This document shows positions 12,408 to 64,000 of a stretch of 64,000 nt of DNA, in pieces (the first letter of the stretch is position 1; each line of letters begins with the position of its first letter). The notes below the pieces were generated by a model. It was given only the letters and a program-made list of their open reading frames with translations. It made no database searches and was not told the DNA's origin. The stretch comes from an uncultured Pseudomonadota bacterium (lineage in GTDB: Bacteria; Pseudomonadota; Alphaproteobacteria; Rs-D84). The translations under genes and the position numbers were made by a program. The stretch is from the NCBI GenBank assembly GCA_902774285.1, contig CACYHO010000004.1:4796-68795 (forward strand). The letters are read 5' to 3'.

Positions 12408-13193
12408 TTATTTATCCAACATCGAACCAAGTGATGGTAACACCGATGTGGCCATCGATTTTATATCACTACTGCCCCCCATAGCAGACACAGCGCTCAA
12501 CACAGAAGATGTTCCAGCAGCACCAGAAGATTGTCCAACACTGCCCAAAGTTTGTGTCACAAAACCACCCAGCAATTCGCGCTTTGCGGCTTTAAGCTTT
12601 GTATCAGAACAACGATTTGCTTTTTCTTTTAACTTTCCAATTTTTTTCGCTTCTGCCCTGGTATAGTCATCATCAGAAAACGGTATTTTTGCGAAAACAT
12701 CATATATATTTGATACAGTCGTACATTTTTTACTGTTGCCATCTTCACATTTTGATGTAGAACTGGCTTTTGGAAAACCTTGCCAAACAGTATCTTTATC
12801 TGCGTCACTGTGGAAAGTATCAAAGCATGCTTCATCTTTATCCGCATTATTTATACATGTGCTGTAACCATCTTCCCACTTTTTACCCAAACCGCTTTGC
12901 GCAGATTCTGCAGTAACCTCACCAAGTTTAGCCCATTCTTTGACCAAATCATTAACCGTGTTTAATTCATCAGATGTTGGTGCACAATCCGCACTTAATT
13001 GTTGTTGCCGTGCGTTCAGTGTCTGAACACTGCTGACCAACCCAATAACCGTAGGTAATAAACTGGTTGCAGATTCAACCTTGTCAGCTTTCTTTGTGGC
13101 AACAGGCGCTGCCTTTTTTATATTAATAGCAGCCTGTGATACAGAAATCACAGCAAACGTGGCCATAAAGAAGATGGACAATATCTTTTTCAT
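12408..13193 (-). CDS. Secreted protein with an S/G-rich C-terminus (hypothetical)
   Basis: 261 aa. Signal MKKILSIFFMATFAVISVSQA, scattered Cys, and C-terminal GSVGQSSGAAGTSSVLSAVSAMGGSS. A terminator hairpin lies at 12368-12388. Confidence 0.55.
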   Translation of the reverse strand: MKKILSIFFMATFAVISVSQAAINIKKAAPVATKKADKVESATSLLPTVIGLVSSVQTLNARQQQLSADCAPTSDELNTVNDLVKEWAKLGEVTAESAQSGLGKKWEDGYSTCINNADKDEACFDTFHSDADKDTVWQGFPKASSTSKCEDGNSKKCTTVSNIYDVFAKIPFSDDDYTRAEAKKIGKLKEKANRCSDTKLKAAKRELLGGFVTQTLGSVGQSSGAAGTSSVLSAVSAMGGSSDIKSMATSVLPSLGSMLDK

Positions 13194-31239: not shown

Positions 31240-31313
31240 TGGGGCATAGTTTAATGGTAGAACATCGGACTCTGACTCCGCTAGTGTTGGTTCGAATCCA
31301 GCTGCCCCAACCA
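31240..31313 (+). tRNA. tRNA-Gln (anticodon CUG), CCA encoded
   Basis: Hand-folded. Acceptor TGGGGCA/TGCCCCA with the U1-A72 pair typical of bacterial tRNA-Gln. Anticodon loop CTCTGAC, T-arm GTTGG-TTCGAAT-CCAGC, 3' ACCA. Confidence 0.88.
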
Positions 31314-40559: not shown

Positions 40560-41051
40560 ATGTCTAGAACGAATACCGATAATTTTGGTGATTTTTTGTT
40601 GGTAATGATAGTGGTAGTAATACCTCTTTTATATGTTAGCATATCCCCTATCGTCGATAGCAAAAAATACGCCAGGAAGCAAACTGAAATCGCATCGAAT
40701 TTTGCACACTATAACGCGGTAAATTCTGTTGATACAATAAATTTTGACGGCACACCAATTGATGTAAAGGCCGCACGTAAAGATTCTGCAACAGCCATTA
40801 AACAAATGCGCAAAGCCACACGTCGTTTTCATAAAGATGACTGTTTCGACTATTTTAATGATTCTCCTAAACTCATTGTTTCATATGATCCGACAGATAC
40901 AGCAAAAACAAATCCACATTACAGCTGGACAAAATGGCATTTAAATATAGATAAGGCGATGGAAGATTCGACTTTTGCTGCATCTTACAACAGATATTAC
41001 AAAGCAATTCAACAACTTGAAATCGCACGCCGACACGGCAAGATAAAATAA
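40560..41051 (+). CDS. Membrane-anchored hypothetical protein, tandem paralog 1
   Basis: 163 aa with N-terminal TM segment (FLLVMIVVVIPLLYV). Shares with the next gene the blocks DTINF/YxD..ID.K.ARKDS, INKAM.DS.FA..YN.Y and AI.QLEIARR. Confidence 0.6.
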   Translation: MSRTNTDNFGDFLLVMIVVVIPLLYVSISPIVDSKKYARKQTEIASNFAHYNAVNSVDTINFDGTPIDVKAARKDSATAIKQMRKATRRFHKDDCFDYFNDSPKLIVSYDPTDTAKTNPHYSWTKWHLNIDKAMEDSTFAASYNRYYKAIQQLEIARRHGKIK

Positions 41052-41269: not shown

Positions 41270-41821
41270 ATGAGTTATTCAAGAGATGACGAATCAGGTG
41301 AAACATTGGGTTGTTTAGTATTTGCCGCAATCATAGTTATTCCTGCGACAATATGGGCTTTAATAGGTGATGGCGAAAAACAGATTAAACGTGACGCGCA
41401 AACAAAACCAGTATTAACGAAAGCACACGAACAAGCAGTTGCTGCTGTTGACACAATAAATTACAATGATGTTATAATTGATACAAAAAATGCGCGCAAA
41501 GATTCTGTACGCACAACAAAACAAATGTATAAAATTATGGATATCATATATGAAAACAAAACAAAACGCTTTTTTGATTATGTCCAAGATTCTATTCCTA
41601 TAAAATCAAATTATAGCAGAACAATAAATACATACGTTGATTCTGTTAGCCATGATACAGTTCGTGTTGTGTGGTCTCGTCACAAAACAATAAGCGGAGC
41701 ATCCCCAAAATTTAATATAAATAAAGCAATGAATGATTCCGCATTTGCCACAACATATAATCAGTATTGCGAAGCGATTAAACAATTGGAAATTGCACGT
41801 CGTCAACAAAATGTAAAATAA
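41270..41821 (+). CDS. Membrane-anchored hypothetical protein, tandem paralog 2
   Basis: 183 aa. Same architecture and conserved blocks as 40560-41051. Confidence 0.6.
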   Translation: MSYSRDDESGETLGCLVFAAIIVIPATIWALIGDGEKQIKRDAQTKPVLTKAHEQAVAAVDTINYNDVIIDTKNARKDSVRTTKQMYKIMDIIYENKTKRFFDYVQDSIPIKSNYSRTINTYVDSVSHDTVRVVWSRHKTISGASPKFNINKAMNDSAFATTYNQYCEAIKQLEIARRQQNVK

Positions 41822-41845: not shown

Positions 41846-43312
41846 TTATTTTTTTGATTTTTTATCAGAATCTTTCTTTTCTGATTTTTCAGATTTGACT
41901 TCTTCTTTGGTTTCGACTTCTTCTTCGACTTTTTCGATGTTCTTTTTGCCAATCTTTGACAAAGCACGAACCATATCCATCGCACGTTGTAATTGATAAT
42001 CGCGCGCATCTTTTTCTTCATCAGTCAAACTTAAATAATCTTCTTCGTCTTCATCTTCGTCATCTGACTTTTTAGATTTCTTGGAATCTTTTTTCTTTGA
42101 TTTGTCTTTTTTAGACGACGCATCGTTTTTCAAAGAATTATTGAAAGTCGCTTCTGTGAACAAAGATTCTTTCTTTTCTAATGTTTCAACTTTACTTTGC
42201 AAAACTTCGATATCTGGCGTAATACCTTCATTTTGAATTGAACGACCACTTGGCGTGTAATAACGTGCGATTGTTATATGTATTGCAGAACCATCACCCA
42301 GAGGTTTTTGTTGTTGCACAGATCCTTTACCAAAACTTTGCGATCCCATCACAATTGCACGTCCATTATCTTGCAATGCACCCGCAACAATTTCAGATGC
42401 AGATGCAGAACCATGATTTATCAAAACAACGACAGGTTTGCCATTTATCAAATCACCAGGTTTTGCAAACACTCTTTCAATATCTGCTTTTTCTTTACCA
42501 CGTGTTGATACAATTTCGCCGTCGTCCAAAAACGCATCAGACATTTCAATTGCAGCTGTCAAATACCCCCCAGGGTTGTTGCGCAAATCAAGAACATAGC
42601 CAGCAACATTTTTCTTTTCCAAATCTTTCAACGCATCCTTTAATTCTTTTGTTGTTGTTGCACCAAAATCTGAAACACGTAAATAACCAATCTTTGGCAA
42701 TTTATCATCGTCTTCAGCAGCAGCATCCGATTTTTCACTGAACTTTATAGATTTCACTTTGATAATTGCACGCTTAAGCGTCATTACTTTTGGTTCATTA
42801 CCATCATGAACGACTGTCAATTTAACTGTTGTTCCTGGTTTACCTTTCATCTTTTTAACAGCCTGATTCAGATTCATATCAAAGACCTGTTCACCATCAA
42901 TATGGGTTATGTAATCGCCTGCTTCGATGCCGGCCTTTGCCGCAGGCGTATCATCAATTGGCGAAATAACACGAATTGCGCCCTTGTCACTGGTTATCTG
43001 AATGCCAAGACCGCCAAATTCACCATGTGACTTATCATTAAATTCTTTAAAATCTTCCGAAGACAAATATGAAGAATGCGGATCTAATGCCCCCAACATA
43101 CCATTCATTGCGCCTTCTAACATCTTGCGTTCATCGGCTTCTTCTACAAATTTATCACGCGCAGTTTCAAACACCAGCGCCAGTTTTTTCAATTCACTGT
43201 AAATCTGTTCATCCGTCAAATGCACAACAGGTTCATCTTTCTTTTCTTTTTTTGGTGCTGCATCGCAGACAAACGGCGTTAAAAGTGCCAAAACTAACAA
43301 AAATTTCTTCAT
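41846..43312 (-). CDS. ctpA: Carboxy-terminal processing (S41) peptidase with a K/E/D-rich tail
   Basis: PDZ region (GIEAGDYITHIDG). S41 catalytic region (NHGSASASEIVAGALQD ... SFGKGSVQ). ATG at 43312 gives signal MKKFLLVLALLTPFVCDA. Confidence 0.9.
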   Translation of the reverse strand: MKKFLLVLALLTPFVCDAAPKKEKKDEPVVHLTDEQIYSELKKLALVFETARDKFVEEADERKMLEGAMNGMLGALDPHSSYLSSEDFKEFNDKSHGEFGGLGIQITSDKGAIRVISPIDDTPAAKAGIEAGDYITHIDGEQVFDMNLNQAVKKMKGKPGTTVKLTVVHDGNEPKVMTLKRAIIKVKSIKFSEKSDAAAEDDDKLPKIGYLRVSDFGATTTKELKDALKDLEKKNVAGYVLDLRNNPGGYLTAAIEMSDAFLDDGEIVSTRGKEKADIERVFAKPGDLINGKPVVVLINHGSASASEIVAGALQDNGRAIVMGSQSFGKGSVQQQKPLGDGSAIHITIARYYTPSGRSIQNEGITPDIEVLQSKVETLEKKESLFTEATFNNSLKNDASSKKDKSKKKDSKKSKKSDDEDEDEEDYLSLTDEEKDARDYQLQRAMDMVRALSKIGKKNIEKVEEEVETKEEVKSEKSEKKDSDKKSKK

Positions 43313-43460
43313 TGAAAAATCCCTTTCTTTCAAAGCATAGCATAATAAAAATCAAAACTTTGTGCAACACGATTTTTATATAAAATTTTAGAAATTAAAT
43401 TATTGACAAATCGATTATTTGTATTATATTTATATAAAAATAACACCTAAGGTGCAGAAA

Positions 43461-44294: not shown

Positions 44295-45377
44295 ATGATA
44301 AAAAACAAATTTATTTTGTGTGGTATTTGTTTATGTTATGGCGCCATGCCAGCATTTGGCGCAAATACAGAATTAACTAAAATTCAAAATCAAATAAAAC
44401 AAACAGAAATTCAAAATAAAAAAATCGAACAGCAATTACAAACATCCAATAAAGATGTGGAAAAAACAAAAAAACAATTGGTCAAAGCCGCTGACAAAGT
44501 CAGCAATCTTGAAGAACAACGCGGTGCATTGATAAAACGCATCACAGAATTAGACAAACAACGCGATAAAATTAATATCGAATTGGCACAAAGTCATAAT
44601 GGAATAACAGACGCTACTGCCAGCATGTTATTTATTGCGTCAAATCCTAATTTCGATGCACAAACGATGCACGATTATGTTTTGACATCTGTTATGTTAT
44701 CTGCTGTATCTGAAAAATTTGATGATCAAATAATGGATGCGACACAAAAATTAAAAGAATTAGACAAGATCCATGAAAGTCGAACAATCGAAAAAGAAAA
44801 ATTAGATCGCAGTGCAAAAAAATACACCAACGAAAAAAAAGAATTGGATAAATTATTAAAAACACGTTCTGCACAAAATGAAAAATTAAAAAACCAACAA
44901 ATCGCTCTACAAGATAAATTAAAACAATTATCGGCACGTGCTAAAAATATTTCTGAATTATCTGCAGGGGTTGGTTCTTCCGAAATGTCCAGCGATGCTA
45001 AATTTTCAAAACGCAAATTAAATGTCCCTGTGCGTGGAAAACTGGTTGTAAGGTATGGAGAAAAAACTGCACTTGGCCTTAAATCAGATGGATGGCGCAT
45101 ACGTACACGTGGCAATGCATTAGTTATGGCACCAGCCGATGGAACCGTTAAATTTGCGGACAGTTTCCGTGGTTTTGGCAAAGTGGTTATCATGTCCCAC
45201 AAAAACGGTTATAACACTGTTATGACAAACATGGGATCAATCGATGCAATTGTTGGACAAGAAGTTTTGGCAGGCGAACCTGTTGGTCGTATGAATGAAA
45301 ATCGTCCAGAAATGTATTTGGAAGTTCGCCGTGGCGATAAATCTGTTGACCCTGCCCGTTTATTTAATGAACCTTAG
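44295..45377 (+). CDS. EnvC-like murein hydrolase activator (coiled coil plus degenerate LytM domain)
   Basis: Signal peptide, a long K/Q/E coiled coil, and a C-terminal M23-like fold lacking the HxxxD/HxH metal ligands (GFGKVVIMSHKNGYNTVMTNMG). Confidence 0.75.
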   Translation: MIKNKFILCGICLCYGAMPAFGANTELTKIQNQIKQTEIQNKKIEQQLQTSNKDVEKTKKQLVKAADKVSNLEEQRGALIKRITELDKQRDKINIELAQSHNGITDATASMLFIASNPNFDAQTMHDYVLTSVMLSAVSEKFDDQIMDATQKLKELDKIHESRTIEKEKLDRSAKKYTNEKKELDKLLKTRSAQNEKLKNQQIALQDKLKQLSARAKNISELSAGVGSSEMSSDAKFSKRKLNVPVRGKLVVRYGEKTALGLKSDGWRIRTRGNALVMAPADGTVKFADSFRGFGKVVIMSHKNGYNTVMTNMGSIDAIVGQEVLAGEPVGRMNENRPEMYLEVRRGDKSVDPARLFNEP

Positions 45378-46345
45378 AATTCAAAACGCAAACCAACATT
45401 TACCGTGGTATAAATCATATTATCAGCACTGAACCAATCCCTGTGCGCAGAACCATCACTGTTTGCTATTGTCCATGTAGTTTTTGGGATATACATGAAA
45501 CGCGCGCCTAAATCAACAAACGTATATTCGTTTATTCCATATGATGCGCCAATCATTCCTAACAAAGCAAAATTATTTGATGTTGGATATTTCTCTGCAT
45601 CCGTAGGATTATCAAAAACCAATATACCATTTACAAGTGTCCCATAATTATTCAAATCACTATCTTGAGACAAATCACCAAATATATCAGTTAATTTAAC
45701 CGTCGTCTTAGACATCGCATATCCCGCACCAACACCAATATAAGGGATAAAAGTATTCAAAGGTTTCTTCGTTCCTTCAAAGAAATCATATACAGCCGCA
45801 ACAGATATAACATCAGTGGTAAGTGTTGATTGTACGCCACTGCTGTAAACATGTGCGCGCGTACCAGATGTTAAATTAATCTCGCCTTCGAACAAAGGTA
45901 TCCTATCATAAGTTATTTCAGAAACATGATCAAACGCAGCTTGAAGACGCCACTGCGGATGATAAGGAAGTGAAAAACCGATATAACCACCAGCTGCAAA
46001 TGCTGTTTTTGACAGATTCTTTGCAGCAGGTATTTCAGATACATCACCAATACCAATATAATTATAGTCCGCGCGTTGCGTTGAATCGAGCATACTGTAA
46101 GCAGTACCAGAAATTACAATACCAGACGAAGAATTGGCATAATAATCTGTTTGCACACTGCCCATGTCATTTTTAATTTTGCCGTTTACAAAACTGATAC
46201 CACCATAACCACCGATAACAAATCTGGATCCATCGTCATTATAATAGCCATCTTTAATGTAATAACCATTATATTGCCACCCAGCAAAAGCCGGTATAGC
46301 CGATACACAACAGGCAAACAAAAATAAAATTTTGTGCAATTTCAT
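45374..46345 (-). CDS. Outer-membrane beta-barrel protein (porin-like)
   Basis: Signal MKLHKILFLFACCVSAIPAFA. Alternating-hydrophobicity strands. C-terminal ...VNVGLRFEF. Confidence 0.7.
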   Translation of the reverse strand: MKLHKILFLFACCVSAIPAFAGWQYNGYYIKDGYYNDDGSRFVIGGYGGISFVNGKIKNDMGSVQTDYYANSSSGIVISGTAYSMLDSTQRADYNYIGIGDVSEIPAAKNLSKTAFAAGGYIGFSLPYHPQWRLQAAFDHVSEITYDRIPLFEGEINLTSGTRAHVYSSGVQSTLTTDVISVAAVYDFFEGTKKPLNTFIPYIGVGAGYAMSKTTVKLTDIFGDLSQDSDLNNYGTLVNGILVFDNPTDAEKYPTSNNFALLGMIGASYGINEYTFVDLGARFMYIPKTTWTIANSDGSAHRDWFSADNMIYTTVNVGLRFEF

Positions 46346-46401
46346 TATGGATTTAATTATATCATAAAAACAACATTAAAAAAAGAACAAAGCAATAAAA
46401 A

Positions 46402-46417
46402 ATGCCCAAATGGGCAT
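46402..46417. terminator. Terminator hairpin downstream of the BOF gene
   Basis: ATGCCC-aaat-GGGCAT flanked by an A-run and a T-run. Confidence 0.55.
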
Positions 46418-46419
46418 TT

Positions 46420-46773
46420 TTATTTTACAATAGATTCAACATCTACTTCTGTGTAATTTGGCCCTTTGTCGACATTGCCATATACGGTTACAATATCGTC
46501 AACACGAACAGTATTTCCATTCCAGTCTTCTTCGTCTATTTCCAACATAATTGTCCCGGAACCATCTTCAAAAACAAAAATGTTATTACCCATATTTTTT
46601 GTGATACGACCGCGCATAACAACAGGTGTATCATCTGGTAAAGACACAACTTCTGTTACTGTCCAAACGGCTGGTTGATTATTCATATTGCCATTCGTAT
46701 TTTTACCAGGTCCTGCAAAGGCACCACAAATTGGCATTATTGCAAGCAACGCCAAAACAGATATTTTTTTCAT
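46420..46773 (-). CDS. Periplasmic bacterial OB-fold (YgiW/BOF) protein
   Basis: 117 aa with a signal peptide. PVVMRGRITKNMGNNIFVFEDGSGTIMLEIDEEDW pattern typical of the YgiW family. Confidence 0.75.
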   Translation of the reverse strand: MKKISVLALLAIMPICGAFAGPGKNTNGNMNNQPAVWTVTEVVSLPDDTPVVMRGRITKNMGNNIFVFEDGSGTIMLEIDEEDWNGNTVRVDDIVTVYGNVDKGPNYTEVDVESIVK

Positions 46774-46889: not shown

Positions 46890-49355
46890 TTACATTTTTA
46901 TATCTTCACAGAAAGGTTCGCTTTCTTTCACACTACAATCACTTTCAGATCTGAAATACTTTGTCATATTTTTGCACGACGTTGTTACAGTAGTTGTGCA
47001 AATATGGCAAGTTCTGGTAGCCTTATCAAATGTGGCACGGCTTTCTTTTGTGAAACCAGAATTTTTAGATGTTCTGCCACGATAAGTAAATGTATCAGCA
47101 CCCTCTTGTATCTTGCCCAAACCACCAGATAACAATGTCTTTGTTGATAAACCTGTTCCTACATCATAAGATATAGCAAAAGGCGCGGTCAACGGAGACT
47201 GTTCTGAAATTTTGTTCAAATTGAACGAAGTATTACCCATATCACCTAATTTTTGACACATAAATTGGGCTATTTCAGCAGATGCGTTATGAGCCGCCTC
47301 TTCTATCGCAGTCGATACTTTTTTGTTATAATTATCTTGTGCTTTGCGTAAAGCAGCCATGGCAATCATAACACGATACTGATTCAACAAGTTTGGAAAA
47401 CGCGCAACAGTCGAATTATCATAGCTACCCTTGCCATTTATTTGTGATAAATCACGTCCATTAATACAATATTGTATTTGTTGATCAGATTCTATCAAAG
47501 ATATCACTCTGTTTATAGTTCCCGCAACATTCTTCAATTCCTCTTCAATAGAAGCTATTATACCTTCTGCATTTGGAACATCGCTATTGTTCTTTTTGGC
47601 TTCCCTGATATAATCTTGAACACCAATTTCACCTGGTGCTAAAACTTTACCACCGTCAGTAACAGAACCAGATGCATCGCCCATTTTAATGGAACCGAAA
47701 GATATCATACCGGTCACACGATATACAGTTCCGTCTTTTTGTGATTTCACAGAACTTGTACCAATAAAATTATCGGCAGCAAACGAATTACAATCGGTTG
47801 TCGATCCACACAATTCAACCATTTTTTGTTCTGCTAAATTCTGACAATTTTCAAGAGCTTTATTATCAATGTTCAAATACAATCCCATCAACATTGAATC
47901 CAAATCAGACATTTTGAAATCTGGATTTGCTTGTTTGCATACCACTAATTTATCAAGTGGACAAATGTCATGGATATAATTGAAATCCATACCTATACAA
48001 TTTTCGAAATTCTTGCCACATCTGTCTTCTGATGTAAAACATTCTTTAACTTCTTGTGTACAAGCATCTACACGCATTGCCGCCAATTTAGACACTACAT
48101 AATCCCAAATTTGAGGTTCCATTCTTTCACAAGGGTCAATCTGAATCTTACAGAAAGAGCGTGCCATATCTGGTCGTGCAAGACATGCATCCATTGTTGC
48201 TTCGCCTTTGCCAACAATATCATCTTTACACGCCTTTTGAATACAATTCGAAATATCAGACAAACATGATTGACGTTTTTGTGATTCTATATTAGATTCA
48301 GCCAAACGAATTGTTGGTGCAGCTTCACGTAAGAAATCATTCCAAACGTAATCACGAACAGCGACACAACTGTCCAAAACCTTTTCACAAATGAAACGTT
48401 TTGATTCCAATATACCCATTGTCGATGCAGTTATATCGTATGTATTAACGGTTTCAACTTTTGTGCCTGCAACACTTGTTGCTGTATTATTTTGCATATT
48501 TTCCGATGCGATAGTGAACACACAATTTCCCCAATCAGAACCACAAGCGTCCGAACTCATCATACATTTTTTATATTCAACCATGCATGTTCCACGATCA
48601 TATTTATTTGATTCTTCCAGACTGTCTTTCAAAGCACCACGAACAGCAGCTTTTGCTTTTGCCAATATAGAATCTGCTTCCTGTTTCTTTTGGGCTATAC
48701 TATTCGCTAAACCCTTACAATCAGAAATAATTTGACGAGAATACATTTGAGTTAACAAAGTCATATCTTTTGAACAAGAATCAGGCATTTGCTCTTTACA
48801 CAATTGATGCGCAGCAGAATACAATTGTCTGCCAACCTTATCAGACAAATCTATTTCAGCCCATTCATCATCATATTCTTCTTCGTCTTCCGTATCATAA
48901 ATCGAAGTCCACTCTATTTTATTTTTTGGTTTTTCACCCGCTTTTACAATAGATCCATCTTCATTATAAATACGTTCACCACCATTAAATATAATATCGG
49001 CATTACCACCAGCTTGGATTCTTTCTACTTCTTCTGTTCCAATACGTTCCGCTTCTACTAATATTTTTTTAATAGATTCCAACTGTTCGTCATATTTAGC
49101 CGCATCATCACTGCACATACATGTGCCGCCATTTTCATTATCAGCGATACAAAATTGATCCATACAGCCAAAATATCTGTTATAACAATCTTCATCAAAA
49201 ACACCTGTTGCTTCAACTTTGGCACGAACTTTTGTACCTGCTTGAATAGCAGATTGTTTTTTTACTTTGGTTTTAGTTGCAGCAATAGAATCCATTGGCA
49301 ACACTGCTAACGAAGCAAAACCAAACAACAAACCAATTTTGAACAACTTTTTCAT
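46890..49355 (-). CDS. Giant secreted cysteine-rich protein, CxxxYxxCM family (821 aa)
   Basis: Signal MKKLFKIGLLFGFASLAVLPMDSIA. Signature CYNRYFGCMDQFCIADNENGGTCMCS. Blocks shared with the 718-aa paralog: NKYDRGTCMVEYKKC, LDSCVAVRDYVWNDF, RTCHIC, and C-terminal CEDIKM. Confidence 0.8.
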   Translation of the reverse strand: MKKLFKIGLLFGFASLAVLPMDSIAATKTKVKKQSAIQAGTKVRAKVEATGVFDEDCYNRYFGCMDQFCIADNENGGTCMCSDDAAKYDEQLESIKKILVEAERIGTEEVERIQAGGNADIIFNGGERIYNEDGSIVKAGEKPKNKIEWTSIYDTEDEEEYDDEWAEIDLSDKVGRQLYSAAHQLCKEQMPDSCSKDMTLLTQMYSRQIISDCKGLANSIAQKKQEADSILAKAKAAVRGALKDSLEESNKYDRGTCMVEYKKCMMSSDACGSDWGNCVFTIASENMQNNTATSVAGTKVETVNTYDITASTMGILESKRFICEKVLDSCVAVRDYVWNDFLREAAPTIRLAESNIESQKRQSCLSDISNCIQKACKDDIVGKGEATMDACLARPDMARSFCKIQIDPCERMEPQIWDYVVSKLAAMRVDACTQEVKECFTSEDRCGKNFENCIGMDFNYIHDICPLDKLVVCKQANPDFKMSDLDSMLMGLYLNIDNKALENCQNLAEQKMVELCGSTTDCNSFAADNFIGTSSVKSQKDGTVYRVTGMISFGSIKMGDASGSVTDGGKVLAPGEIGVQDYIREAKKNNSDVPNAEGIIASIEEELKNVAGTINRVISLIESDQQIQYCINGRDLSQINGKGSYDNSTVARFPNLLNQYRVMIAMAALRKAQDNYNKKVSTAIEEAAHNASAEIAQFMCQKLGDMGNTSFNLNKISEQSPLTAPFAISYDVGTGLSTKTLLSGGLGKIQEGADTFTYRGRTSKNSGFTKESRATFDKATRTCHICTTTVTTSCKNMTKYFRSESDCSVKESEPFCEDIKM

Positions 49356-49369
49356 TTTTTCTCTCTTTT

Positions 49370-51526
49370 TTACATATTTATGTCTTCACAAGATTCGATT
49401 TCTTGACAGAATTCTTTTTTACCACCAGATGCAGCACCAAGAACACCTGCACCAACAGCACCAACCAAACCACCAATGGCCGTGCCCCATCCTGCATTTA
49501 TCATTGTTCCTGTTGCAGCCCCCGCAGACAAACCACCAGCAGCAGCTTTCAAAGCAGATGTTGCTTTATCTTCTCCACCTTCTTCACAAACTTGTTGCAA
49601 ACGACAAACGTGACAATTACGCAAATTCGGTTCAAAAGATACACTCTTTATATAACTATAATTTGTCTTGGAATCATCCGCCTTTTCAGCTTTATATGTC
49701 TTCAAACAAATTTGTTCTGCTTCTTTTAATTCTTTTTTACGTGCCAATTCAGCAATCTTGGTATCTAATTCACGCAAATTACGATTTTCTGCTGCCATTT
49801 TTGCCAACAATTTCGCAGTATTAAACACACTTACCCCCAAAGCATTCTTATTTTTAACTTTTTTAGAAGCATCACCACTTTGAGAATCCGAACATGCTGC
49901 CACTGTTTTATCTTGTTCAAATTGCTTAAAGAAATCTTCAACAGAGGCATCAGAATTTGCAACAACCGTTTTACGCAAATTAGCCAAACCTTCTTCCGTA
50001 TCAGGCAAATCGATTAAAGACTGAACTGTTGAATCTATTGGCAAACAGGCCATATCTGTGCCACAAACTTTACCAAGTTGTTCGCCAAAATAATTGATAC
50101 AACCTTGCATCATTTGATAATCCATTTGCAAAAGCGCAGACTGAACTATTATGTCATACTGTGTTGCACCTTTACATGATGGGAACATATCTTGCGGACA
50201 AAGTGCTGCTATTTCATATGGTTTTTTACCAACACATTCTGGTTTAGTAAAATCAACACCACATTTATCTTGTAAACATTTATCGATTTCATTTTCGCAG
50301 AATTTGGTTCTTAAATACCCCAACTTGTCATTCACAACAGCTTGGAACCCAGGGATTTTTGCATCACATTCTGTAATAATTGGACATATACCGGCTGCAA
50401 CATTAACATTTGTTAAACATTCTGCATTTGTTGATGTAGAACAACTGTCTTCCAAACAAAATTGCGTTTTCGCAAGACACGTTGCACGTTCGTTCTTATC
50501 TGCATATTTTGCAGCCTCTGCCAGTACACTTTCAGATTCTGCTTTCCAATCTTTTACAACATAATCACGAACAGCCATACATTGATCTAAAATATTTTCA
50601 CATGCATTAGAACGACGTTGTAATAGTTTTGCATCTAAACAATTTTCAAAGTTTGCACCACAACCGCCCTTGTCCGCTATACAGGAACGATAAGCCAACA
50701 AACATTCGCCACGATTATATTTGTTTGTTGTACCCAACATTTCAAGACGCGCCTTGCGAACCGCAGATTCTGCAACGCGTTTATTAGATTCTGCATTTGC
50801 CTTTTGATCGGCCAAATACGCGTCATAATTTTTACAATCTTGCGTTATCATTCTGGAATACAACATCGATTCCATTTCAGATTTGCTGCCACAGGCATCC
50901 AATTCTGCCTGACAATATTTGACAGCCATATCATACAAACCTGATCCTAAAACAACATCTTCACCTACATCTTCATCGTCTTCATTTTCTCCGTCACTAA
51001 GCCATGCTAAAAAGTTTGTACTAGACACTTTGGTACTTGTGTTATTATCCGCAAAAACCAATCTGGCTTTGGCACCTAACTGTTCGCGTTCAACACCTTC
51101 TGTATATAACTTATCAGCTTCTGCCTGAATGGCTAACACCGCATTAATTTTACTTTTTGCATATTCTATATTATCAGAGCAAGCACAGCGTTCACCTTGA
51201 CTTTCATCCAACAAACAAAAACTATCCATACATTCACGATACGCATCACGACAATCACTGTTCCCTTCAACGACAGCAAGCGATGTAGTAGATGTTTTTT
51301 TTGCGGCAGATTCACCAGATTTCACACCTTCTGCAGAAGTCGATATAATGCCAGATTTTACCCCTTGTTCAAAGGCTTCTTGAACATCAATTTCTGTAAC
51401 TATCGCCCTTGTACCAGCTTGTGATACACGCCCCATACCAATACGAGCAGAAGAATCACCACGCGAAGCACCGAACGCAACTGAAGGTATAACCAATAAT
51501 ATTGGTAAAAAGTTTATCATTTTCAT
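49370..51526 (-). CDS. Giant secreted cysteine-rich protein, CxxxYxxCM family (718 aa), with a C-terminal glycine-zipper segment
   Basis: Signal MKMINFLPILLVIPSVAFG. Signature CRDAYRECMDSFCLLDESQGERCACS. Blocks NKYNRGECLLAYRSC, LDQCMAVRDYVVKDW and RNCHVC. Gly-zipper AAAGGLSAGAATGTMINAGWGTAIGGLVGAVGAGVLGAASGG. C-terminal CEDINM. A 14-nt gap with GAGAG precedes the downstream paralog. Confidence 0.8.
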   Translation of the reverse strand: MKMINFLPILLVIPSVAFGASRGDSSARIGMGRVSQAGTRAIVTEIDVQEAFEQGVKSGIISTSAEGVKSGESAAKKTSTTSLAVVEGNSDCRDAYRECMDSFCLLDESQGERCACSDNIEYAKSKINAVLAIQAEADKLYTEGVEREQLGAKARLVFADNNTSTKVSSTNFLAWLSDGENEDDEDVGEDVVLGSGLYDMAVKYCQAELDACGSKSEMESMLYSRMITQDCKNYDAYLADQKANAESNKRVAESAVRKARLEMLGTTNKYNRGECLLAYRSCIADKGGCGANFENCLDAKLLQRRSNACENILDQCMAVRDYVVKDWKAESESVLAEAAKYADKNERATCLAKTQFCLEDSCSTSTNAECLTNVNVAAGICPIITECDAKIPGFQAVVNDKLGYLRTKFCENEIDKCLQDKCGVDFTKPECVGKKPYEIAALCPQDMFPSCKGATQYDIIVQSALLQMDYQMMQGCINYFGEQLGKVCGTDMACLPIDSTVQSLIDLPDTEEGLANLRKTVVANSDASVEDFFKQFEQDKTVAACSDSQSGDASKKVKNKNALGVSVFNTAKLLAKMAAENRNLRELDTKIAELARKKELKEAEQICLKTYKAEKADDSKTNYSYIKSVSFEPNLRNCHVCRLQQVCEEGGEDKATSALKAAAGGLSAGAATGTMINAGWGTAIGGLVGAVGAGVLGAASGGKKEFCQEIESCEDINM

Positions 51527-51598
51527 GCGAGCTCATCCTACATTTTTATATTATTTTATCAAAAAATACATTACCTTGCAAGCAGATATAAAAATTTC

Positions 51599-51627
51599 TT
51601 GCAATTTTATTTTGCTGTTAATATTAT
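51599..51627 (+). promoter_or_regulatory. Candidate infA promoter (TTGCAA-17-TATTAT)
   Basis: TTGCAA at 51599-51604 and TATTAT at 51622-51627. Confidence 0.45.
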
Positions 51628-51657
51628 AAAAGGGTTAAAAAAATGAGGTTTTTATTT

Positions 51658-51909
51658 ATGGCAAAAGATGATGTAATTGTTTTTTCTGGAACCGTTGAAG
51701 AAAGATTGCCAAACACTATGTTTCGCGTTCGTCTTGAAAACGGTCATATGATATTGGCAACAGTTTGTGGAAAAATGCGTAAAGCGCGTATTTGGGTTAA
51801 CGTTGGTGAAAAAGTCCATGTTGAAATGACACCTTACGATTTGGACAAAGGTAGAATTACTTTTGTAGAACGCACACACTCGACGCCAGAAGGTGCACCA
51901 AATCATTAA
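51658..51909 (+). CDS. infA: Translation initiation factor IF-1 with a short C-terminal extension
   Basis: [69 protein letters not shown] is canonical IF-1. An extra tail, [14 protein letters not shown], follows. Confidence 0.93.
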
Positions 51910-51918
51910 AAATAAAAA

Positions 51919-51941
51919 ATCCACTTTTTGTGGATTTTTTT
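51919..51941 (+). terminator. Terminator after infA
   Basis: ATCCAC-ttttt-GTGGAT followed by a T-run. Confidence 0.65.
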
Positions 51942-52011
51942 ATTTCTTTTTTATGTAAAATACCCTTGCTTAAAATATCTTATTTTTGTTATTATTATTA
52001 AAAAGCATAGG

Positions 52012-54339
52012 ATGAGAAAGTTTTGTCTTGTTTTGTTCGGTTTATTTTTGTGCATTGACTGTGTCAATGCTGCTGTTCGCACACAAAACATTTCAACACA
52101 ATCGACCTCCAGACAATCAAGAACAAAAACTGATAACACCGTAAATCATTCTTTGTCTTCTCGAAATGTCGCAACACAAGATACGACAAGAAAAACAACA
52201 TCAAGGGCCACATCAAAAAAAGTTGTTACAGGTCGTACGGGTACAGGATCAACAAAACGAATTGTTACGCCTGTTTCTCAAAAAACATCGCGTAACACGC
52301 GCGCTGCAACGACAGTAAAGACCAGAACTTTTGGAACAAATTATAATTCTTGTCGTGATGCTTATTTTACATGCATGGATCAATTTTGCGCAACGCAAAA
52401 TGAAGATTATCGCAGATGTGTTTGTTCTTCAAAATTGAAAGATATTCAAAACCAAGAAAAATTGTTATCACAAACATCTGACAGCTTGAAAGATTTCCAA
52501 GATTTAAATATAAATATGATTTCAAAAACTTCGAAAGAAGTTAAAGCAATGTTATCTGCATCCGAAGGTGAAACAGAGATAAAGAAAGATAAATCAGAAA
52601 GTGCAAATACACTAAAAAGCATATCTGGTGTTCTTAGTAATACAAAATCAACATCTATTTCAAACCAAGGTAAACTAGATATTGTTGGTGATATAAAATC
52701 AGTTTGGTCCACAACAGATTTAATTGGTGGCGCCGATATCGCAAATCTTACCGGCGAAGCATTATTTAATGCCGTACACACACAATGTTCTGAATTGGTC
52801 GCGCAAAGTTGTGGTGCGTCAGATTTAAAAATGGTTGCTTCTGCATATGGTATGTATATTGAAAATGATTGTTCATTACTTGAAACAAACATTAAAAACA
52901 AAAAGACCAGCGCAAATGCCGCCATACGTGGAACACGTCACAATATGCAAGACGCTCGTCTTGAAAATTATAATGTTCACAATTCTGTGAATATGACCGA
53001 TTGTATTGCAAATGTTAGAAAAGACATCACTGCAAACACGGCATGCGGTGAAAAATATATTCATTGTTTAGATTTTTCTGGTAAGTATTTAAACTCAACG
53101 AGTGGGGCACCGATATATACACCAGAATTTTATCAAATAGAAAATCAAATATCATTGTCTGGTGATGTTTTAAAAAATTCACAAAACGTGAACTTCTTAA
53201 ACATGCTTAACAAGAAACGACATTTTGCAACAAAAAGCCTTGATGCGTGTCGCGACAATGCAGACGATGTATGGGATGAATTTTTAAGACAAGCACTTGT
53301 AGAAATATATCAAGGACAACAAGAACGCGTAAAAACAGTTAAAAACGAATGCCTGCAGGTTGTCAATGATTGCTATTTGAAACAATCTGATCAACTAAAA
53401 AGCTTTTCTGATACAGATGGAAAAATTAGTCTTGGGGAAATACTAGAATTATCAGAAGAAATGTGTGCAGATAAATTAAACACTTGCAGCAACCTGTACG
53501 GTGGTGGCGATACAGGATTTGAGTTATTAATTGCAACAATGACAGGCATCACAAATGCAACCATAGAACAAACATGTCCCGATATGTTGGCGACATTTGC
53601 CAAAAACATTTGTTCTGTAACAAGTGGCAAAGATACTATGCATTCTTATCCGTATGGTTGCAGAAAATATGCGCCAGGAGAAGCACGTTATGCGCGCATT
53701 AACTTGTGTAACAAAACACTGGTCAATCCATTCTCTAAAACAAATATTCTTCTTACTAACGTAAATGTACAAGATTCTGTATCTGACTATCTCACAATTT
53801 GTGAAGCAGAACGTGCCAGCAATCATTTACATAAAGTTTATATCAGTTGCAAATATGGAAAATATTTGTTCGCACAACAAAACGGTTGTGATTTGTCCAA
53901 TCCTATTACTTGTTATGCATCAAACAATAACGCAACAAGATGTGAAGATTGTCCTTCCACAGCGATATGCCCTGGTGGAAAATCAAAACCTATCAGCAAA
54001 GATGCAGAATTATATAATTCATGTGGTCAATATTATGTTGGCAGTCTTTATCAACAATTGGCCAGATATGCAATTCAAAATTGCAAACGACCATCTGACA
54101 CATCCTATACTGTATCAGAAACATTACTGACTGATATTGATAATGTTATGGTCCAAATACGCACACAAATGTCAACAGAACTTGCAAAAGAATGTGAAAA
54201 CCAATCTGGCACTTGGGTTGACGTTCCTTGGGAAGACAACAATAACGATGGATTACACGATACAACGAATGATTCGTTATTAAATAATTTCTATACAACG
54301 ACAGGCACCAACGCATTGTGGGGTTATTGTAAACCATAA
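52012..54339 (+). CDS. Giant secreted cysteine-rich protein, CxxxYxxCM family (775 aa)
   Basis: Signal MRKFCLVLFGLFLCIDCVNA, then an S/T/R-rich segment. Signature CRDAYFTCMDQFCATQNEDYRRCVCS. Block LDACRDNADDVWDEFLRQA is related to the AVRDYVWNDFLRE block of the paralogs. Confidence 0.8.
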   Translation: MRKFCLVLFGLFLCIDCVNAAVRTQNISTQSTSRQSRTKTDNTVNHSLSSRNVATQDTTRKTTSRATSKKVVTGRTGTGSTKRIVTPVSQKTSRNTRAATTVKTRTFGTNYNSCRDAYFTCMDQFCATQNEDYRRCVCSSKLKDIQNQEKLLSQTSDSLKDFQDLNINMISKTSKEVKAMLSASEGETEIKKDKSESANTLKSISGVLSNTKSTSISNQGKLDIVGDIKSVWSTTDLIGGADIANLTGEALFNAVHTQCSELVAQSCGASDLKMVASAYGMYIENDCSLLETNIKNKKTSANAAIRGTRHNMQDARLENYNVHNSVNMTDCIANVRKDITANTACGEKYIHCLDFSGKYLNSTSGAPIYTPEFYQIENQISLSGDVLKNSQNVNFLNMLNKKRHFATKSLDACRDNADDVWDEFLRQALVEIYQGQQERVKTVKNECLQVVNDCYLKQSDQLKSFSDTDGKISLGEILELSEEMCADKLNTCSNLYGGGDTGFELLIATMTGITNATIEQTCPDMLATFAKNICSVTSGKDTMHSYPYGCRKYAPGEARYARINLCNKTLVNPFSKTNILLTNVNVQDSVSDYLTICEAERASNHLHKVYISCKYGKYLFAQQNGCDLSNPITCYASNNNATRCEDCPSTAICPGGKSKPISKDAELYNSCGQYYVGSLYQQLARYAIQNCKRPSDTSYTVSETLLTDIDNVMVQIRTQMSTELAKECENQSGTWVDVPWEDNNNDGLHDTTNDSLLNNFYTTTGTNALWGYCKP

Positions 54340-60841: not shown

Positions 60842-61942
60842 ATGCAAAAATACCTGAACAAAATTTTGTGCGGTGATTGTATTGATATAATGCGCAAAAT
60901 TCCAGATGCATCTGTTGATGCGGTTTTTGCTGATTCCCCATATAATTTACAATTGGGAGAAAAGACTCTTTATCGCCCTGAAGACCAAACCGCAGCACGC
61001 GCGGTGCGTGATAATTGGGATGCGTTTGAATCTAATGAACAGTATGATGAATTTACACGTCAATGGATGCGCGAATGTAAACGCATATTAAAACCAGATG
61101 GTGCAATGTGGGTTATTGGATCGTACCATAATATATTCCGTGTTGGTTCCATTTTACAAGATATGGGATTTTGGATTTTGAATGATATTGTTTGGGTTAA
61201 AACAAATCCAATGCCTAATTTCCGCGGAACACGTTTTACAAATGCACATGAAACTTTGATTTGGGCTACACCCACCAAGACGGGCAAATACACATTTAAT
61301 TATGAAACCATGAAGAAATTAAATGGCGGAAAACAAATGCGTTCTGATTGGGATATAAATATTTGTTTGGGTGAAGAACGTGTCAAAGACGAAAATGGAA
61401 AAAGTTTACATAACACACAAAAACCAATGGATTTATTGCGTCGCGTTATTTTGGCTTCTACCAAGGCTGGCGATATTATATTGGATCCATTTGTTGGTTC
61501 TGGAACAACAGCTGCTGTTGCCAAAGAATTGGGGCGTCAATTTATCGGCATAGATCGCGAAGAATCTTATGTCAAAGCGGCACGCGAACGTGTAAATAAT
61601 ATAACACCAATTGATTTATCTGATATTGAAGTATCTGCACCGAAACGCGATGCAATCAAGGTTGGATTCCGCGAATTAATTGATGCAGGATTGCTTTATG
61701 TTGGACAAACGTTGGTTGGCCCACGCGGTGATCGTGTAATGATCACACACGACGGACAATTGATGCATACGTTGTACGGCAAAGCATCAATTCATGTTAT
61801 GGCTGCACGTATTCAACACAGTGTAAGTTTTAATGGATGGGATTATTGGTCCGCACAAAAACAAGACGGCACATTGGTTCCAATTGATGAATTACGTAAA
61901 TATATTCGTGATATAAAACAAAACATCAAAAAAGCAGCGTAA
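60842..61942 (+). CDS. ccrM: CcrM-type (beta-class) N6-adenine DNA methyltransferase
   Basis: Near-collinear with the CcrM sequence as I remember it. Examples: ILCGDCIDIMRKIP, WVIGSYHNIFRVG, FWILNDIVWVKTNPMPNFRGTRF(T)NAHETLIWA, QMRSDW, HNTQKP, DPFVGSGTT. The catalytic tetrad reads DSPY rather than DPPY. Confidence 0.92.
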   Translation: MQKYLNKILCGDCIDIMRKIPDASVDAVFADSPYNLQLGEKTLYRPEDQTAARAVRDNWDAFESNEQYDEFTRQWMRECKRILKPDGAMWVIGSYHNIFRVGSILQDMGFWILNDIVWVKTNPMPNFRGTRFTNAHETLIWATPTKTGKYTFNYETMKKLNGGKQMRSDWDINICLGEERVKDENGKSLHNTQKPMDLLRRVILASTKAGDIILDPFVGSGTTAAVAKELGRQFIGIDREESYVKAARERVNNITPIDLSDIEVSAPKRDAIKVGFRELIDAGLLYVGQTLVGPRGDRVMITHDGQLMHTLYGKASIHVMAARIQHSVSFNGWDYWSAQKQDGTLVPIDELRKYIRDIKQNIKKAA

Positions 61943-62556: not shown

Positions 62557-64000
62557 TTACCAGATTCCATGTGATGTCATCAGGGCATCATCTGCTATAC
62601 AAATGGTTCCAGAAAGCTTACATGCAGATGGGATCAATGTATATTTACCAGATCTGTCTTTAAGGTTAATTTGAACCTTTGGACAATCCATTAATTTGCT
62701 GTTGAATTGTGAACATGCTTGTTCCCAAGACGCTTTATCAACAACAGCAGATGTTGGGGATACCGCATCTGGCAAATGCAAATTCCATTTTACATAGAAA
62801 TCTTTCAAAGAATCTATGGTGTGTGCTTTACCCAAAGCAACAGAATTCAAACCATCACCAACTTTACATGTAATGTTGCTTTTTTCAACAAATGCTGTAA
62901 TAGCAGTTGCGATACCACCAGCCGCAGCACCAGTTGCCGCACCGATAGCAACGCCTTTACCAATTTCTTTACCTTTATCTAATTTAACATTTATACCAAC
63001 ACCTTTATCCAATCGGCTTAATACAGACTGCATAACTCTTAAATCACCTTTGATTGTTTTATCATCTACACACGCATCTGTACCTTCACACAAAGGACTG
63101 TCTTCCCCGCCTTTTACAAGAACTTTATCCAAAGCTTTGAAAGAACAATTATTGATATATTCTATAGTTTTCTCTTTATTCGTTAACTGCAAATCACGAC
63201 TTGCGATTTCTTGTTCATTGCATATAAATTTACCATCGATTTTAAGTTCGCTAACAATTTGTTCTCTTTCCTGTGCAGTCAAACGATTTTCACAATAATC
63301 GAGTGCATGTTCATACATTTGAACTTTTGAATATAAATCAAGAACCTTTTCACAATCCGCAGAACCAAAATTATCAAAATTGATAGAGTCGTCATAATTT
63401 GATATAACTTCATCTTCGTGCATTATACTTCTAATATAATGTCCCATTTTTTCTACATATTTTGAATCGTTACAAGCTTCTTGTTTTTTCTTGTAAGCAC
63501 CTGCCCCGGCGGCTGCACCGATAGCACCACCAAGAACGGCACCACCAGGTACTGCGATAACAGCGGCAGTCTTGGTATCATTTAACAAAGAATTGAAATC
63601 AAACAAATCTTTGCTACAAGTAAATGTAGAGCCCGCTTTTTCCCAAACTTCTGCAGGGTTATCATTACCCACGGCCCCAAACAACCAACTGTTTGTAATT
63701 AATTTATCTTTGTTATACGCAGCAACACGAATTAAACATTCTGCTTTGGCTGCATCCCAACGTGCATAATGGCCACGATTTCCATCATATCCAACAGTAT
63801 TAACTTCAACACCTTGTGGTTTGTTTTTTGACAAAGTTCCATTCATTGCTTCGTTATAAGCACCAACTTTATTATTGTATTCTGTATTAACTTTGTCAGT
63901 ATCAGAAACGGCCGCAAATGAAGAACCATAAGTATTTCTGTCTAATAATAAACAAGTGTTTTCAGCCTGATTTGGGGTTAAACCTGTTTTACGCAAAACA
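62557..64000 (-). CDS. Large cysteine-rich protein with two glycine-zipper segments (partial; N-terminus beyond the window)
   Basis: The ORF is open to the window edge. The first residue in the ORF track is a TTG 4 nt from the edge, and no signal peptide is visible. Segments GGAVLGGAIGAAAGAGA and GKGVAIGAATGAAAGGIATAITA. Many Cys. Confidence 0.6.
   Translation of the reverse strand, partial: VLRKTGLTPNQAENTCLLLDRNTYGSSFAAVSDTDKVNTEYNNKVGAYNEAMNGTLSKNKPQGVEVNTVGYDGNRGHYARWDAAKAECLIRVAAYNKDKLITNSWLFGAVGNDNPAEVWEKAGSTFTCSKDLFDFNSLLNDTKTAAVIAVPGGAVLGGAIGAAAGAGAYKKKQEACNDSKYVEKMGHYIRSIMHEDEVISNYDDSINFDNFGSADCEKVLDLYSKVQMYEHALDYCENRLTAQEREQIVSELKIDGKFICNEQEIASRDLQLTNKEKTIEYINNCSFKALDKVLVKGGEDSPLCEGTDACVDDKTIKGDLRVMQSVLSRLDKGVGINVKLDKGKEIGKGVAIGAATGAAAGGIATAITAFVEKSNITCKVGDGLNSVALGKAHTIDSLKDFYVKWNLHLPDAVSPTSAVVDKASWEQACSQFNSKLMDCPKVQINLKDRSGKYTLIPSACKLSGTICIADDALMTSHGIW

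Follow-up and report, generated by a model that had tools for sequence, protein, structure and literature searches.

A paralogous family of putatively exported, cysteine-rich proteins in uncultured gut Alphaproteobacteria of the order Rs-D84

A stretch of 64,000 nucleotides from an uncultured alphaproteobacterium of the order Rs-D84 (assembly GCA_902774285.1, contig CACYHO010000004.1, positions 4,796 to 68,795), here called the window, encodes four cysteine-rich proteins, indicated as A, B, C and D. Judging from their sequences, the four form a true paralogous family, would be exported through Sec, and feature up to 36 conserved cysteines, probably paired in disulfide bonds; a core role in the cell envelope, as yet uncharacterized, is probable for them. 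They define a protein family, and probably also a fold, undescribed in current databases; the structures compared were those of PDB and BFVD, and novelty is claimed for family and fold, not for a mechanism. The open reading frames (ORFs), of 821, 718, 775 and 297 amino acids (aa), are all found at the positions given in the initial annotation of this DNA; its label "giant" is overstated for proteins of 700–800 aa.

46890-49355, minus strand: gene A, 821 aa, from the ORF list; signal peptide, short Lys-rich linker, N-terminal module with 8 Cys (N-module), predicted helical Cys-rich core, mixed middle region and predicted C-terminal beta domain ending CEDIKM; 36 Cys in the mature protein.
49370-51526, minus strand: gene B, 718 aa; 36-Cys framework collinear with that of A, glycine-zipper insertion near the C-terminus.
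52012-54339, plus strand: gene C, 775 aa, read from the ATG at 52012, inside an 803-aa ORF starting with TTG; signal peptide with conserved LFLC...VNAA, ~88-aa linker, shared N-terminal Cys-rich region, predicted helical, and C-terminal half ending WGYCK.
6556-7449, plus strand: gene D, 297 aa; signal peptide, basic linker and 8-Cys N-module only, which makes it the minimal family member.

All four share an N-terminal signature, built on the cysteine pattern C-x6-C-x4-C-x9-C-x-C, which was localized by a pattern scan over the six frames.

49110-49187, minus strand: signature in A, CYNRYFGCMDQFCIADNENGGTCMCS
51176-51253, minus strand: signature in B, CRDAYRECMDSFCLLDESQGERCACS
52351-52428, plus strand: signature in C, CRDAYFTCMDQFCATQNEDYRRCVCS
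6973-7050, plus strand: signature in D, CMADYKECMEGYCKREDTAYNRCYCS

These sequences, as quoted in the initial annotation, are present verbatim in the four proteins, and are the sole matches in the six-frame translation of the window. The strict form of the pattern, used as a regular expression (C-x3-Y-x2-C[M][DE]x[FY]C-x9-CxC[S]), was never found in 200 shuffles of the window, against the 4 occurrences observed; reduced to its cysteines, it occurs with a mean of 0.005 per shuffle, again against 4.

The proposed paralogy of the four proteins is supported by BLASTP, which aligns A with B (2e-51, 27% identity over ~500 aa), A with C (8e-22), B with C (3e-11) and D with C (3e-9), as well as by HHalign: a profile of D matches the N-terminal module of A, B and C with a probability of 98.5% (E=2.3e-14), all 8 Cys being in register. 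Further collinear blocks reported earlier (NKYxRGxC..., LDxCxAVRDYV, R[TN]CH[IV]C, CEDIxM) are also seen in the translations. The N-module covers about 170 aa, with 8 Cys arranged as C-x6-C-x4-C-x9-C-x-C ... C-x6/7-C-x18-C. D aligns to residues 45-236 of A: its eight cysteines are the five of the signature and the equivalents of A186, A194 and A213, and the module is accordingly the smallest unit from which the family is built. In its C-terminal half, C has no relation to A and B. A duplication of a whole module inside A (residues 50-345 against 350-530) was considered and discarded: the hhalign match covers just 24 columns (E=0.057), around a C-x6-C-x6-CG-x5-C block, and is too weak.

The family is widely distributed among related genomes. 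Copies of the window proteins, 100% identical, are found on metagenomic contigs of up to 267 kb. Matches to A, B and C number 1302, 955 and 809, respectively, with full-length orthologues of each in the hundreds; the best 120 orthologues of each are 55-100% identical to the window proteins (66-100% for A). For D, 11 full-length metagenomic orthologues were translated (57-74% identity), one of them lying on a contig of 379,726 bp which also bears orthologues of A and B. When one genome per GTDB species was scanned, at least 567 relatives were found, the best 80 loci all belonging to metagenome-assembled genomes (MAGs) from gut samples. Finally, a profile search of 1.84 billion cluster representatives returned 1,006 clusters (50% identity) at E<=1e-3, 530 of them at <=1e-30, with lengths of 426-1166 aa; of the 150 best clusters, 136 bear the N-terminal signature, and for many the identity to A, B or C is only 29-45%. 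The family is thus both large and diverse. Relatives bearing a name are 'Candidatus Enterousia', unclassified Alphaproteobacteria or 'Rickettsiales' MAGs, from rumen, horse, chicken, human, mouse and other gut samples: every organism-named member is an uncultured gut alphaproteobacterial MAG. Enterousia, to which the window is assigned, has been placed in the uncultured order Rs-D84, with genomes of about 0.75-1.0 Mb, devoid of flagella and of the tricarboxylic acid cycle, and for which a partner-dependent lifestyle has been suggested (PMC12306168).

Gene order is conserved as well. Synteny was evaluated by tblastn of the window genes against the best 80 related loci, only those with enough flank being informative: in every such species-representative locus, C and infA lie on one side and B and A on the other, in the order C<-infA | B->A. 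Exactly three motif-bearing ORFs are present in 67 of 83 loci. At the deepest divergence, identities are 82% for infA, 79% for ClpX, 77% for ClpP, 61% for B, 59% for A, 47% for C and 38% for the periplasmic OB-fold protein (BOF) described below; A, B and C thus appear to diverge at envelope-like rates, under clear purifying selection. As the genes are kept in every relative examined, they probably encode a core, uncharacterized envelope component. Third-position GC content is the same as in the neighboring genes, which argues against a recent foreign origin, and tblastn found no relatives of A either on 72,556 plasmids or in phages. Codon usage, ranked by an index similar to the codon adaptation index, ranges from 0.55 to 0.72 and does not set reference genes apart, hence provides no signal of expression. 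Decaying pseudogenes were also considered, and ruled out by the full-length orthologues, with every cysteine, present in hundreds of clusters.

Signal peptides of type I, with a basic n-region, a hydrophobic core and an AxA site, were recognized by eye in all groups and are kept across orthologues, which upholds the Sec-type export initially proposed. In B the signal peptide ends with AFG/AS, and no lipobox Cys is present. In C, Cys14, within the hydrophobic core ('LFLC'), is 100% conserved across orthologues; C was therefore examined as a candidate lipoprotein, and rejected as such: with an invariant Leu at -1 and an AxA site further on, the motif is not a canonical lipobox.

Between signal peptide and N-module, each protein features a linker, of variable length and charge. 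In A it is short (median 31 aa), Lys-rich and with a net charge of +3, while in B it is about 71 aa long and slightly acidic. The linker of C is the most extreme:

52075-52341, plus strand: linker of C, residues ~22-110, polycationic, depleted in acidic residues, predicted to be disordered.

Over 119 orthologues this segment, of ~88 aa, has a median net charge of +14, and is rich in S/T/N (T 21%, S 13%, R 12%, D+E about 2%); residues 16-105 have pLDDT <50 in the AlphaFold model. For the 136 diverse representatives bearing the signature, the median net charge of the linker is +8.

The mature proteins share a conserved cysteine framework. In an alignment of 145 sequences from the three groups, the 36 Cys columns of A and those of B are each 100% conserved within the group, and 22 columns are common to A, B and C; the lists of Cys spacings in A and B match one to one. 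Among the best 120 orthologues of each, exactly 36 Cys beyond residue 30 are counted in 118 for A and in 115 for B, and exactly 8 in all of the 12 D sequences (the window copy and its 11 orthologues). In the C group the mature count is mostly odd, 31 or 29, which leaves one Cys that may be unpaired or engaged in an intermolecular bond. A bias toward even numbers of cysteines is an accepted sign of disulfide-bonded exported proteins, according to a statement in PMC2823432 citing Dutton et al. 2008; a conserved, even-biased count is found for A, B and D, with the C group as the exception, and the family alignment shows the pairwise loss expected of this class.

Losses of cysteines also occur in pairs. 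In a family alignment of 270 sequences, six distinct pairs are lost together: 794+807 in 9 sequences, 364+409 in 4, 516+522 in 2, 465+473 in 2, and, in addition, 264+323 and 376+391; single losses are rare, and losses in fours are not observed. Disulfides would produce such a behavior, which would not be expected of Cys4 metal sites. The co-lost pairs fit the predicted topology: in the model, 794 and 807 lie about six residues either side of a beta-turn, facing each other across a hairpin, while 364 and 409 are placed on neighboring predicted helices. Of all spacings between consecutive cysteines, 23% are C-x6-C, a heptad periodicity which would bring both residues to the same face of a helix. 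Even counts and pairwise loss indicate about 18 intramolecular disulfides in A and B, rather than metal sites, and the proposal of a disulfide-stabilized fold is thus sustained. A disulfide-crosslinked lattice, also proposed, is not: the same data point mainly to bonds within the molecule, the odd count of C leaving room for one intermolecular bond.

The possibility that A-D are instead periplasmic metal-binding or redox proteins, with cysteines, including those of a CH[IV]C motif, either ligating Zn, Fe-S or Cu or shuttling electrons or disulfides, appears quite improbable. It would suit a strict anaerobe which lives under reducing conditions and seems to have no respiratory chain on which DsbB could rely, and finds some agreement in the counts, since 36 can be divided by 4 as well and that of the C group is mostly odd; a CxxC with an intervening His is conserved in A and B. 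Yet losses of cysteines affect defined pairs, never groups of four, and their heptad-like spacing within helices is unlike the CxxC...CxxC knuckles of metal sites. Moreover, the signal peptides are of the Sec type and not of the Tat type, making the export of cofactor-loaded proteins unlikely, and no metal-binding domain was matched in Pfam or NCBIfam.

The C-terminal region common to A and B is a block of five cysteines, interrupted in B by the glycine-rich insertion.

46893-47009, minus strand: C-terminal 5-Cys block of A, CHIC-x7-C-x12-C-x8-CEDIKM, predicted to form beta-hairpins.
49409-49585, minus strand: glycine-zipper insertion of B, residues ~648-706, between Cys647 and Cys707; putative disulfide-stapled, membrane-inserting hairpin.

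In B the spacing of the block is C-x2-C-x5-C-x59-C-x5-C: the loop between third and fourth Cys, 12 residues long in A, is replaced by 59 residues, with the consensus SALKAAAGGLSAGA.AGTM.NAGWGTAIGG.VGAVGAGVLGA.SGGKK. The flanking Cys647 and Cys707 correspond to the co-lost pair C794/C807 of A. The glycine-zipper segment noticed in the initial annotation is real and strongly conserved, being kept in 117 of 120 orthologues, with 59% G/A/S, a mean Kyte-Doolittle value of 0.97 and a median of 13 overlapping GxxxG-type triplets. Its matches to known zippers are below threshold: Bacteriocin_IIc at E=0.049, and YiaD_Gzip_OmpA at E=0.41, with 10 bits against a cutoff of 175.

The block opens, in both proteins, with C-H-[IV]-C, a CxxC including a His (CHIC in A, 46983-47009; CHVC in B, 49604-49615; both on the minus strand). 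Instead of a merely structural pair, it may represent a site for redox activity or metal binding.

Three-dimensional models of A and C were obtained by AlphaFold2, run on the 145-sequence alignment. The model of A (pLDDT 66, pTM 0.37) is helical over residues 55-520 (the longest helix has 58 residues), mixed over 530-720 and composed of beta-sheet over 729-820. In the model of C (pLDDT 73.8, pTM 0.49), 211 residues are at 90 or above, and helices of 53-56 residues, about 8 nm long, are predicted. When these moderate-confidence models were compared by Foldseek to PDB, no significant match was found, the best E being 1.0 for A and 1.2 for C, with TM <=0.3; the same holds for BFVD (best E=0.18). 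Searches of PDB sequences by phmmer and by hmmsearch with the family profile gave no match, and neither Pfam-A (cut at E<=1) nor NCBIfam reported anything above noise for A-D. The same Pfam run found autotransporter, OmpA, BOF and M23 domains in the neighboring genes, showing that the searches were working. Database entries for the relatives of A-D are labeled only as 'hypothetical protein', and no description of them was found in the papers searched. The initial failure to recognize a characterized family is therefore confirmed by Pfam, NCBIfam, PDB and Foldseek alike: no profile or structure match emerged, while reading frames and motif are intact in hundreds of relatives.

PHROGs returned only two matches, both dismissed as noise: one, to a tape-measure family (E=0.003), reflects low-complexity glycine sequence, and the other, for D, is weak and DnaB-like. 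Domain fusions were sought by Pfam in the nine longest representatives (1013-1166 aa), giving only a sub-threshold DUF7631 on a short CxxC stretch, which is weak in C too.

Exported toxins or effectors, that is, elongated helical proteins forming pores or acting in delivery against competitors or host cells, might be suggested by the top rows of the Foldseek comparison, none of them significant, which include colicin Ia, XptA2 and TcaA-TcaB, and by the glycine-rich, putatively membrane-inserting hairpin of B. Such a role must be considered very improbable: those matches have E >=1 and TM <=0.2, no immunity genes or secretion systems are found among the neighbors, and the genes are core and syntenic across the clade, with none found on plasmids or phages. 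PADLOC gave nothing on A-D, and PHROGs nothing meaningful.

The reading favored here, possible though somewhat short of probable, is that A, B and C form a disulfide-stapled helical scaffold, periplasmic or tethered to the outer membrane, as a core envelope component of these reduced-genome bacteria; we infer their localization, their assembly into a complex and their structural role. The family, specific to uncultured gut Alphaproteobacteria of the order Rs-D84 and their relatives, would be exported via Sec, with a disordered, usually polycationic linker preceding the shared 8-Cys N-module. D would consist of the module alone, while in A, B and C it would be prolonged by long alpha-helices (about 50-58 residues, roughly 8 nm) packed in an elongated bundle, where heptad-spaced (C-x6-C) cysteines would staple adjoining helices by intramolecular disulfides (~18 for A and for B, ~15 for C, 4 for D). 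Sister proteins with an identical 36-Cys framework, A and B would be co-transcribed. The glycine-zipper hairpin of B, stapled at its base by the equivalent of the C794-C807 disulfide of A, would serve as a membrane tether for B; by analogy with the glycine zippers of SlyB/Pcp type, the inner leaflet of the outer membrane is the most likely site. A, and possibly C, may associate with B into a rigid scaffold, resistant to proteases and to reduction, reinforcing or organizing the envelope, whose anionic polymers may be contact points for the basic linkers. An envelope context is provided by the genes adjoining the family, which encode BOF, a 323-aa putative outer membrane protein (OMP) ending with F, an EnvC-like M23 peptidase and CtpA.

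Several points weigh against this scaffold. Its localization is derived from signal peptides read by eye, and onward transport to the cell surface is compatible with the data. The glycine zipper of B reaches no Pfam or NCBIfam threshold, the co-loss of cysteine pairs is partly confounded by phylogeny, since some events may correspond to single clades, and the gene neighborhood is a weak functional linkage, not kept in a distant family member. As to disulfide formation, the gut lumen is reducing and no Dsb or VKOR gene lies within the 64-kb window. Furthermore, the lack of respiratory chains reported for Rs-D84 (PMC12306168) implies that the usual DsbB-quinone route may be missing.

A surface layer or adhesins had been proposed for these proteins. 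Neither proposal is favored by the data: Sec export ends in the periplasm, and neither a beta-barrel nor a signal for a secretion system was detected. S-layer proteins, in addition, are typically poor in cysteine. Proteins exposed on the surface or released, acting as adhesins or in the interaction with a partner, deserve nonetheless to be weighed, and are possible, if on the unlikely side. Anionic glycans, LPS or a partner's surface would be the ligands of the basic linkers, which the stapled stalk would project outward. The linkers of C and D are strongly basic and S/T-rich (the median of +14 was given above for C), recalling the N-terminus of OmcB; the family is much diversified, with about 1,000 clusters at 50% identity and variable C-terminal halves, and C evolves faster than A and B. 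A setting for such a role is offered by the prediction that Rs-D84 bacteria depend on partners and possess many hypothetical membrane proteins, which may mediate cell contacts (PMC12306168). On the other hand, Pfam and NCBIfam revealed no feature of surface export, be it a beta-barrel, an autotransporter domain, T1SS/RTX or another signal; each of A, B and C is present in a single copy, in conserved gene order and with conserved length, and lacks the hypervariability typical of exposed adhesins. The linker of A is short and that of B slightly acidic, and a conventional adhesin, a PMP-type autotransporter, is already encoded at 26770-31098.

Among the closest known parallels to the favored scaffold is the chlamydial OmcB/OmcA-MOMP complex, a functional analogue as far as the concept of cysteine-rich envelope proteins goes. 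In both cases, exported, cysteine-rich envelope proteins (4-5% Cys) are encoded by a reduced-genome diderm, dependent on a host or partner, which also encodes PMP-type autotransporters; toward the N-terminus, C and D have a basic region reminiscent of that by which OmcB binds glycosaminoglycans, and disulfides are the presumed source of envelope robustness. No match to profiles of chlamydial Cys-rich OMPs (Chlam_OMP6 / DUF11-type) was found for A-D, either in Pfam-A at E<=1 or in NCBIfam. OmcB, moreover, is made of beta domains, while A-D are predicted to be mostly long alpha-helices; the chlamydial complex is cross-linked between molecules, while the Cys pattern of A-D indicates mainly intramolecular pairs; and the host of A-D is an alphaproteobacterium with peptidoglycan machinery.

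Other known systems share single features with the family. Helicobacter Hcp proteins, with Sel1-like repeats, are also secreted and alpha-helical, with close Cys pairs bridging pairs of helices. A-D, however, do not form a regular solenoid of ~36-aa repeats, are much larger and have other Cys spacings; their internal repetition is the marginal one reported above, and no Sel1 (SLR) repeat was matched in Pfam at E<=1. The G/A/S-rich, GxxxG-type segment of B resembles the two-helix zipper of SlyB/Pcp, of the Rickettsia 17-kDa antigen and of YiaD, but the likeness is functional only and B is not assigned to the glycine-zipper outer membrane lipoproteins: it has no lipobox, and its zipper is near the C-terminus, inside a predicted beta-hairpin and flanked by a conserved Cys pair. 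In mitochondrial CHCH domains (Cx9C/Cx3C), too, two cysteines lie on one face of a helix, at whole-turn spacing, and pair with a neighboring helix. The spacing in A-D is instead Cx6C, in large multi-helix proteins rather than hairpins of 60-100 aa, and no homology was detected. As for the remaining candidates, no autotransporter beta-barrel (PF03797) was found by Pfam in A-D, the neighboring 1442-aa gene serving as a positive control (1.8e-34), and no Pfam match of RTX type, classical N-terminal signal peptides being present instead of T1SS features. TraN-type Cys-rich OMPs gave no Pfam match either, no relative of A was found on the 72,556 plasmids, and the context is one of chromosomal housekeeping genes.

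Bacteria of the Rs-D84/Enterousia group are widespread in ruminant, horse, chicken and human guts; their genomes are below 1 Mb, they are thought to depend on partners and their cell biology is scarcely known. That a reduced genome keeps three paralogues of 700-800 aa, along with a short fourth one, with invariant cysteines and in fixed order, marks them as important. The family provides a handle on how the envelope is built or protected, or on contacts with partners, through antibodies, metaproteomic markers and structures of recombinant proteins. It also raises a biochemical question: how a strict anaerobe, seemingly without quinone-linked respiration, oxidizes dozens of periplasmic Cys pairs. 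In its boldest form, which is improbable, the scaffold would be a previously unknown bacterial envelope skeleton, made of ~8-nm disulfide-stapled helical struts anchored by a glycine zipper, and setting or reinforcing the architecture of outer membrane and periplasm across a whole order. Roughly 50 disulfides across A, B and C, formed without a respiratory chain, would then imply an unrecognized route of periplasmic oxidation, to which the conserved CH[IV]C could belong.

The features surrounding the A, B and C genes are the following.

51643-51909, plus strand: infA (IF-1), matching Pfam eIF-1a, between the divergent B-A and C units.
51914-51940, both strands: bidirectional terminator-like hairpin directly after infA, with an 11-bp stem.
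46420-46773, minus strand: BOF gene (PF04076, Pfam 2.3e-23), 116 nt downstream of A.
46398-46421, minus strand: terminator-like hairpin after BOF, with a 10-bp stem and a T-run.

B lies upstream of A, the two being separated by 14 nt (49356-49369), a spacing which makes the operon proposed earlier probable. No terminator-like site is found between A and BOF, while one follows BOF: a B-A-BOF operon is thus suggested, and BOF is, from its position, the probable third gene. A BOF homologue is found downstream of A, inside the fetched flank, in 64 of 80 loci, adjoining it in some and 0.8-3.4 kb further in others. C had been described as divergent, with infA in between: it is indeed divergent from B-A, with infA between the two units, but it is co-directional with infA. 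The hairpin after infA suggests that C probably has its own promoter. A promoter scan remained at chance level (31 sites against 32.4 expected), so that only terminator-like hairpins were used. infA is regarded as a housekeeping gene and a syntenic marker; no function shared with A, B and C is inferred.

On one side, the neighbors are ClpP and ClpX; on the other, BOF, the 323-aa OMP-like protein, ending ...RFEF, the EnvC-like M23 peptidase, Fic, CtpA and PFOR. Elsewhere in the window, genes typical of a normal diderm envelope are present: LptC/LptB, a Pal-domain protein, a MotB-like peptidoglycan-binding protein, an SLT transglycosylase and an autotransporter with PMP repeats. For the distant family member (P0403, locus L084), no linkage to infA and no informative system nearby were found.

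The ordinary exported proteins of the window have 0-1 Cys. The mature 323-aa putative OMP, BOF, M23 peptidase, CtpA and 1442-aa autotransporter (45374-46345, 46420-46773, 44295-45377, 41846-43333 and 26770-31098, in this order) have none, and the SLT transglycosylase has one. This pattern of cysteine exclusion makes the 36-Cys family stand out, and bears on the disulfide-forming capacity of the organism; the contrast is a further independent line of evidence for disulfides in the family, besides parity, pairwise loss and topology. The autotransporter (minus strand) has Chlam_PMP repeats and the C-terminal PF03797 domain already mentioned, and is a classical adhesin candidate.

Other exported or membrane proteins of the window were noted aside from the family. 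An ORF at 62557-63996 (minus strand), open to the end of the window, has 15 Cys in 479 aa and two glycine-zipper-like segments, AVPGGAVLGGAIGAAAGAGAY and GKGVAIGAATGAAAGGIATAITAF; it may be another Cys-rich, membrane-tethered envelope protein, while as a family member it was rejected by the HMM (E=0.69). Two exported, unannotated proteins, encoded at 4543-5316 (minus strand, 257 aa, 9 Cys after residue 30) and at 12408-13193 (minus strand, 261 aa, 6 Cys, G/S-rich tail), were likewise discarded, matching neither the family profile nor curated families. Two small paralogous proteins are encoded in tandem at 40560-41051 (163 aa) and 41270-41821 (183 aa), both on the plus strand. Each has an N-terminal hydrophobic anchor, and they share the motifs DTIN[FY]... 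and INKAM.DS.FA..YN.Y..AI.QLEIARR; they have no Pfam or NCBIfam match, and lie beside CtpA in near-identical contigs.

At 215-1360 (plus strand) a 381-aa protein with multiple transmembrane segments shows weak similarity of ZorA/MotA type (2e-5; 24 bits against a cutoff of 500, far sub-threshold). Its gene overlaps the start of the next one, at 1254-2489 (plus strand), which encodes the MotB-like 'peptidoglycan-binding protein' with an OmpA domain (PRK09039-type, 6.9e-70, below cutoff): the two look like a stator-like pair, in an organism reported to be without flagella. Genes for tRNA-Pro(TGG), at 3441-3517, and tRNA-Gln(CTG), at 31240-31313, both on the plus strand, are the sole Rfam or ARAGORN matches in the window. 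Finally, the taxonomic assignment is supported by a CcrM-like N6-adenine DNA methyltransferase, of a kind typical of Alphaproteobacteria, which has a RAMA domain at its C-terminus and is encoded at 60842-61942 (plus strand).

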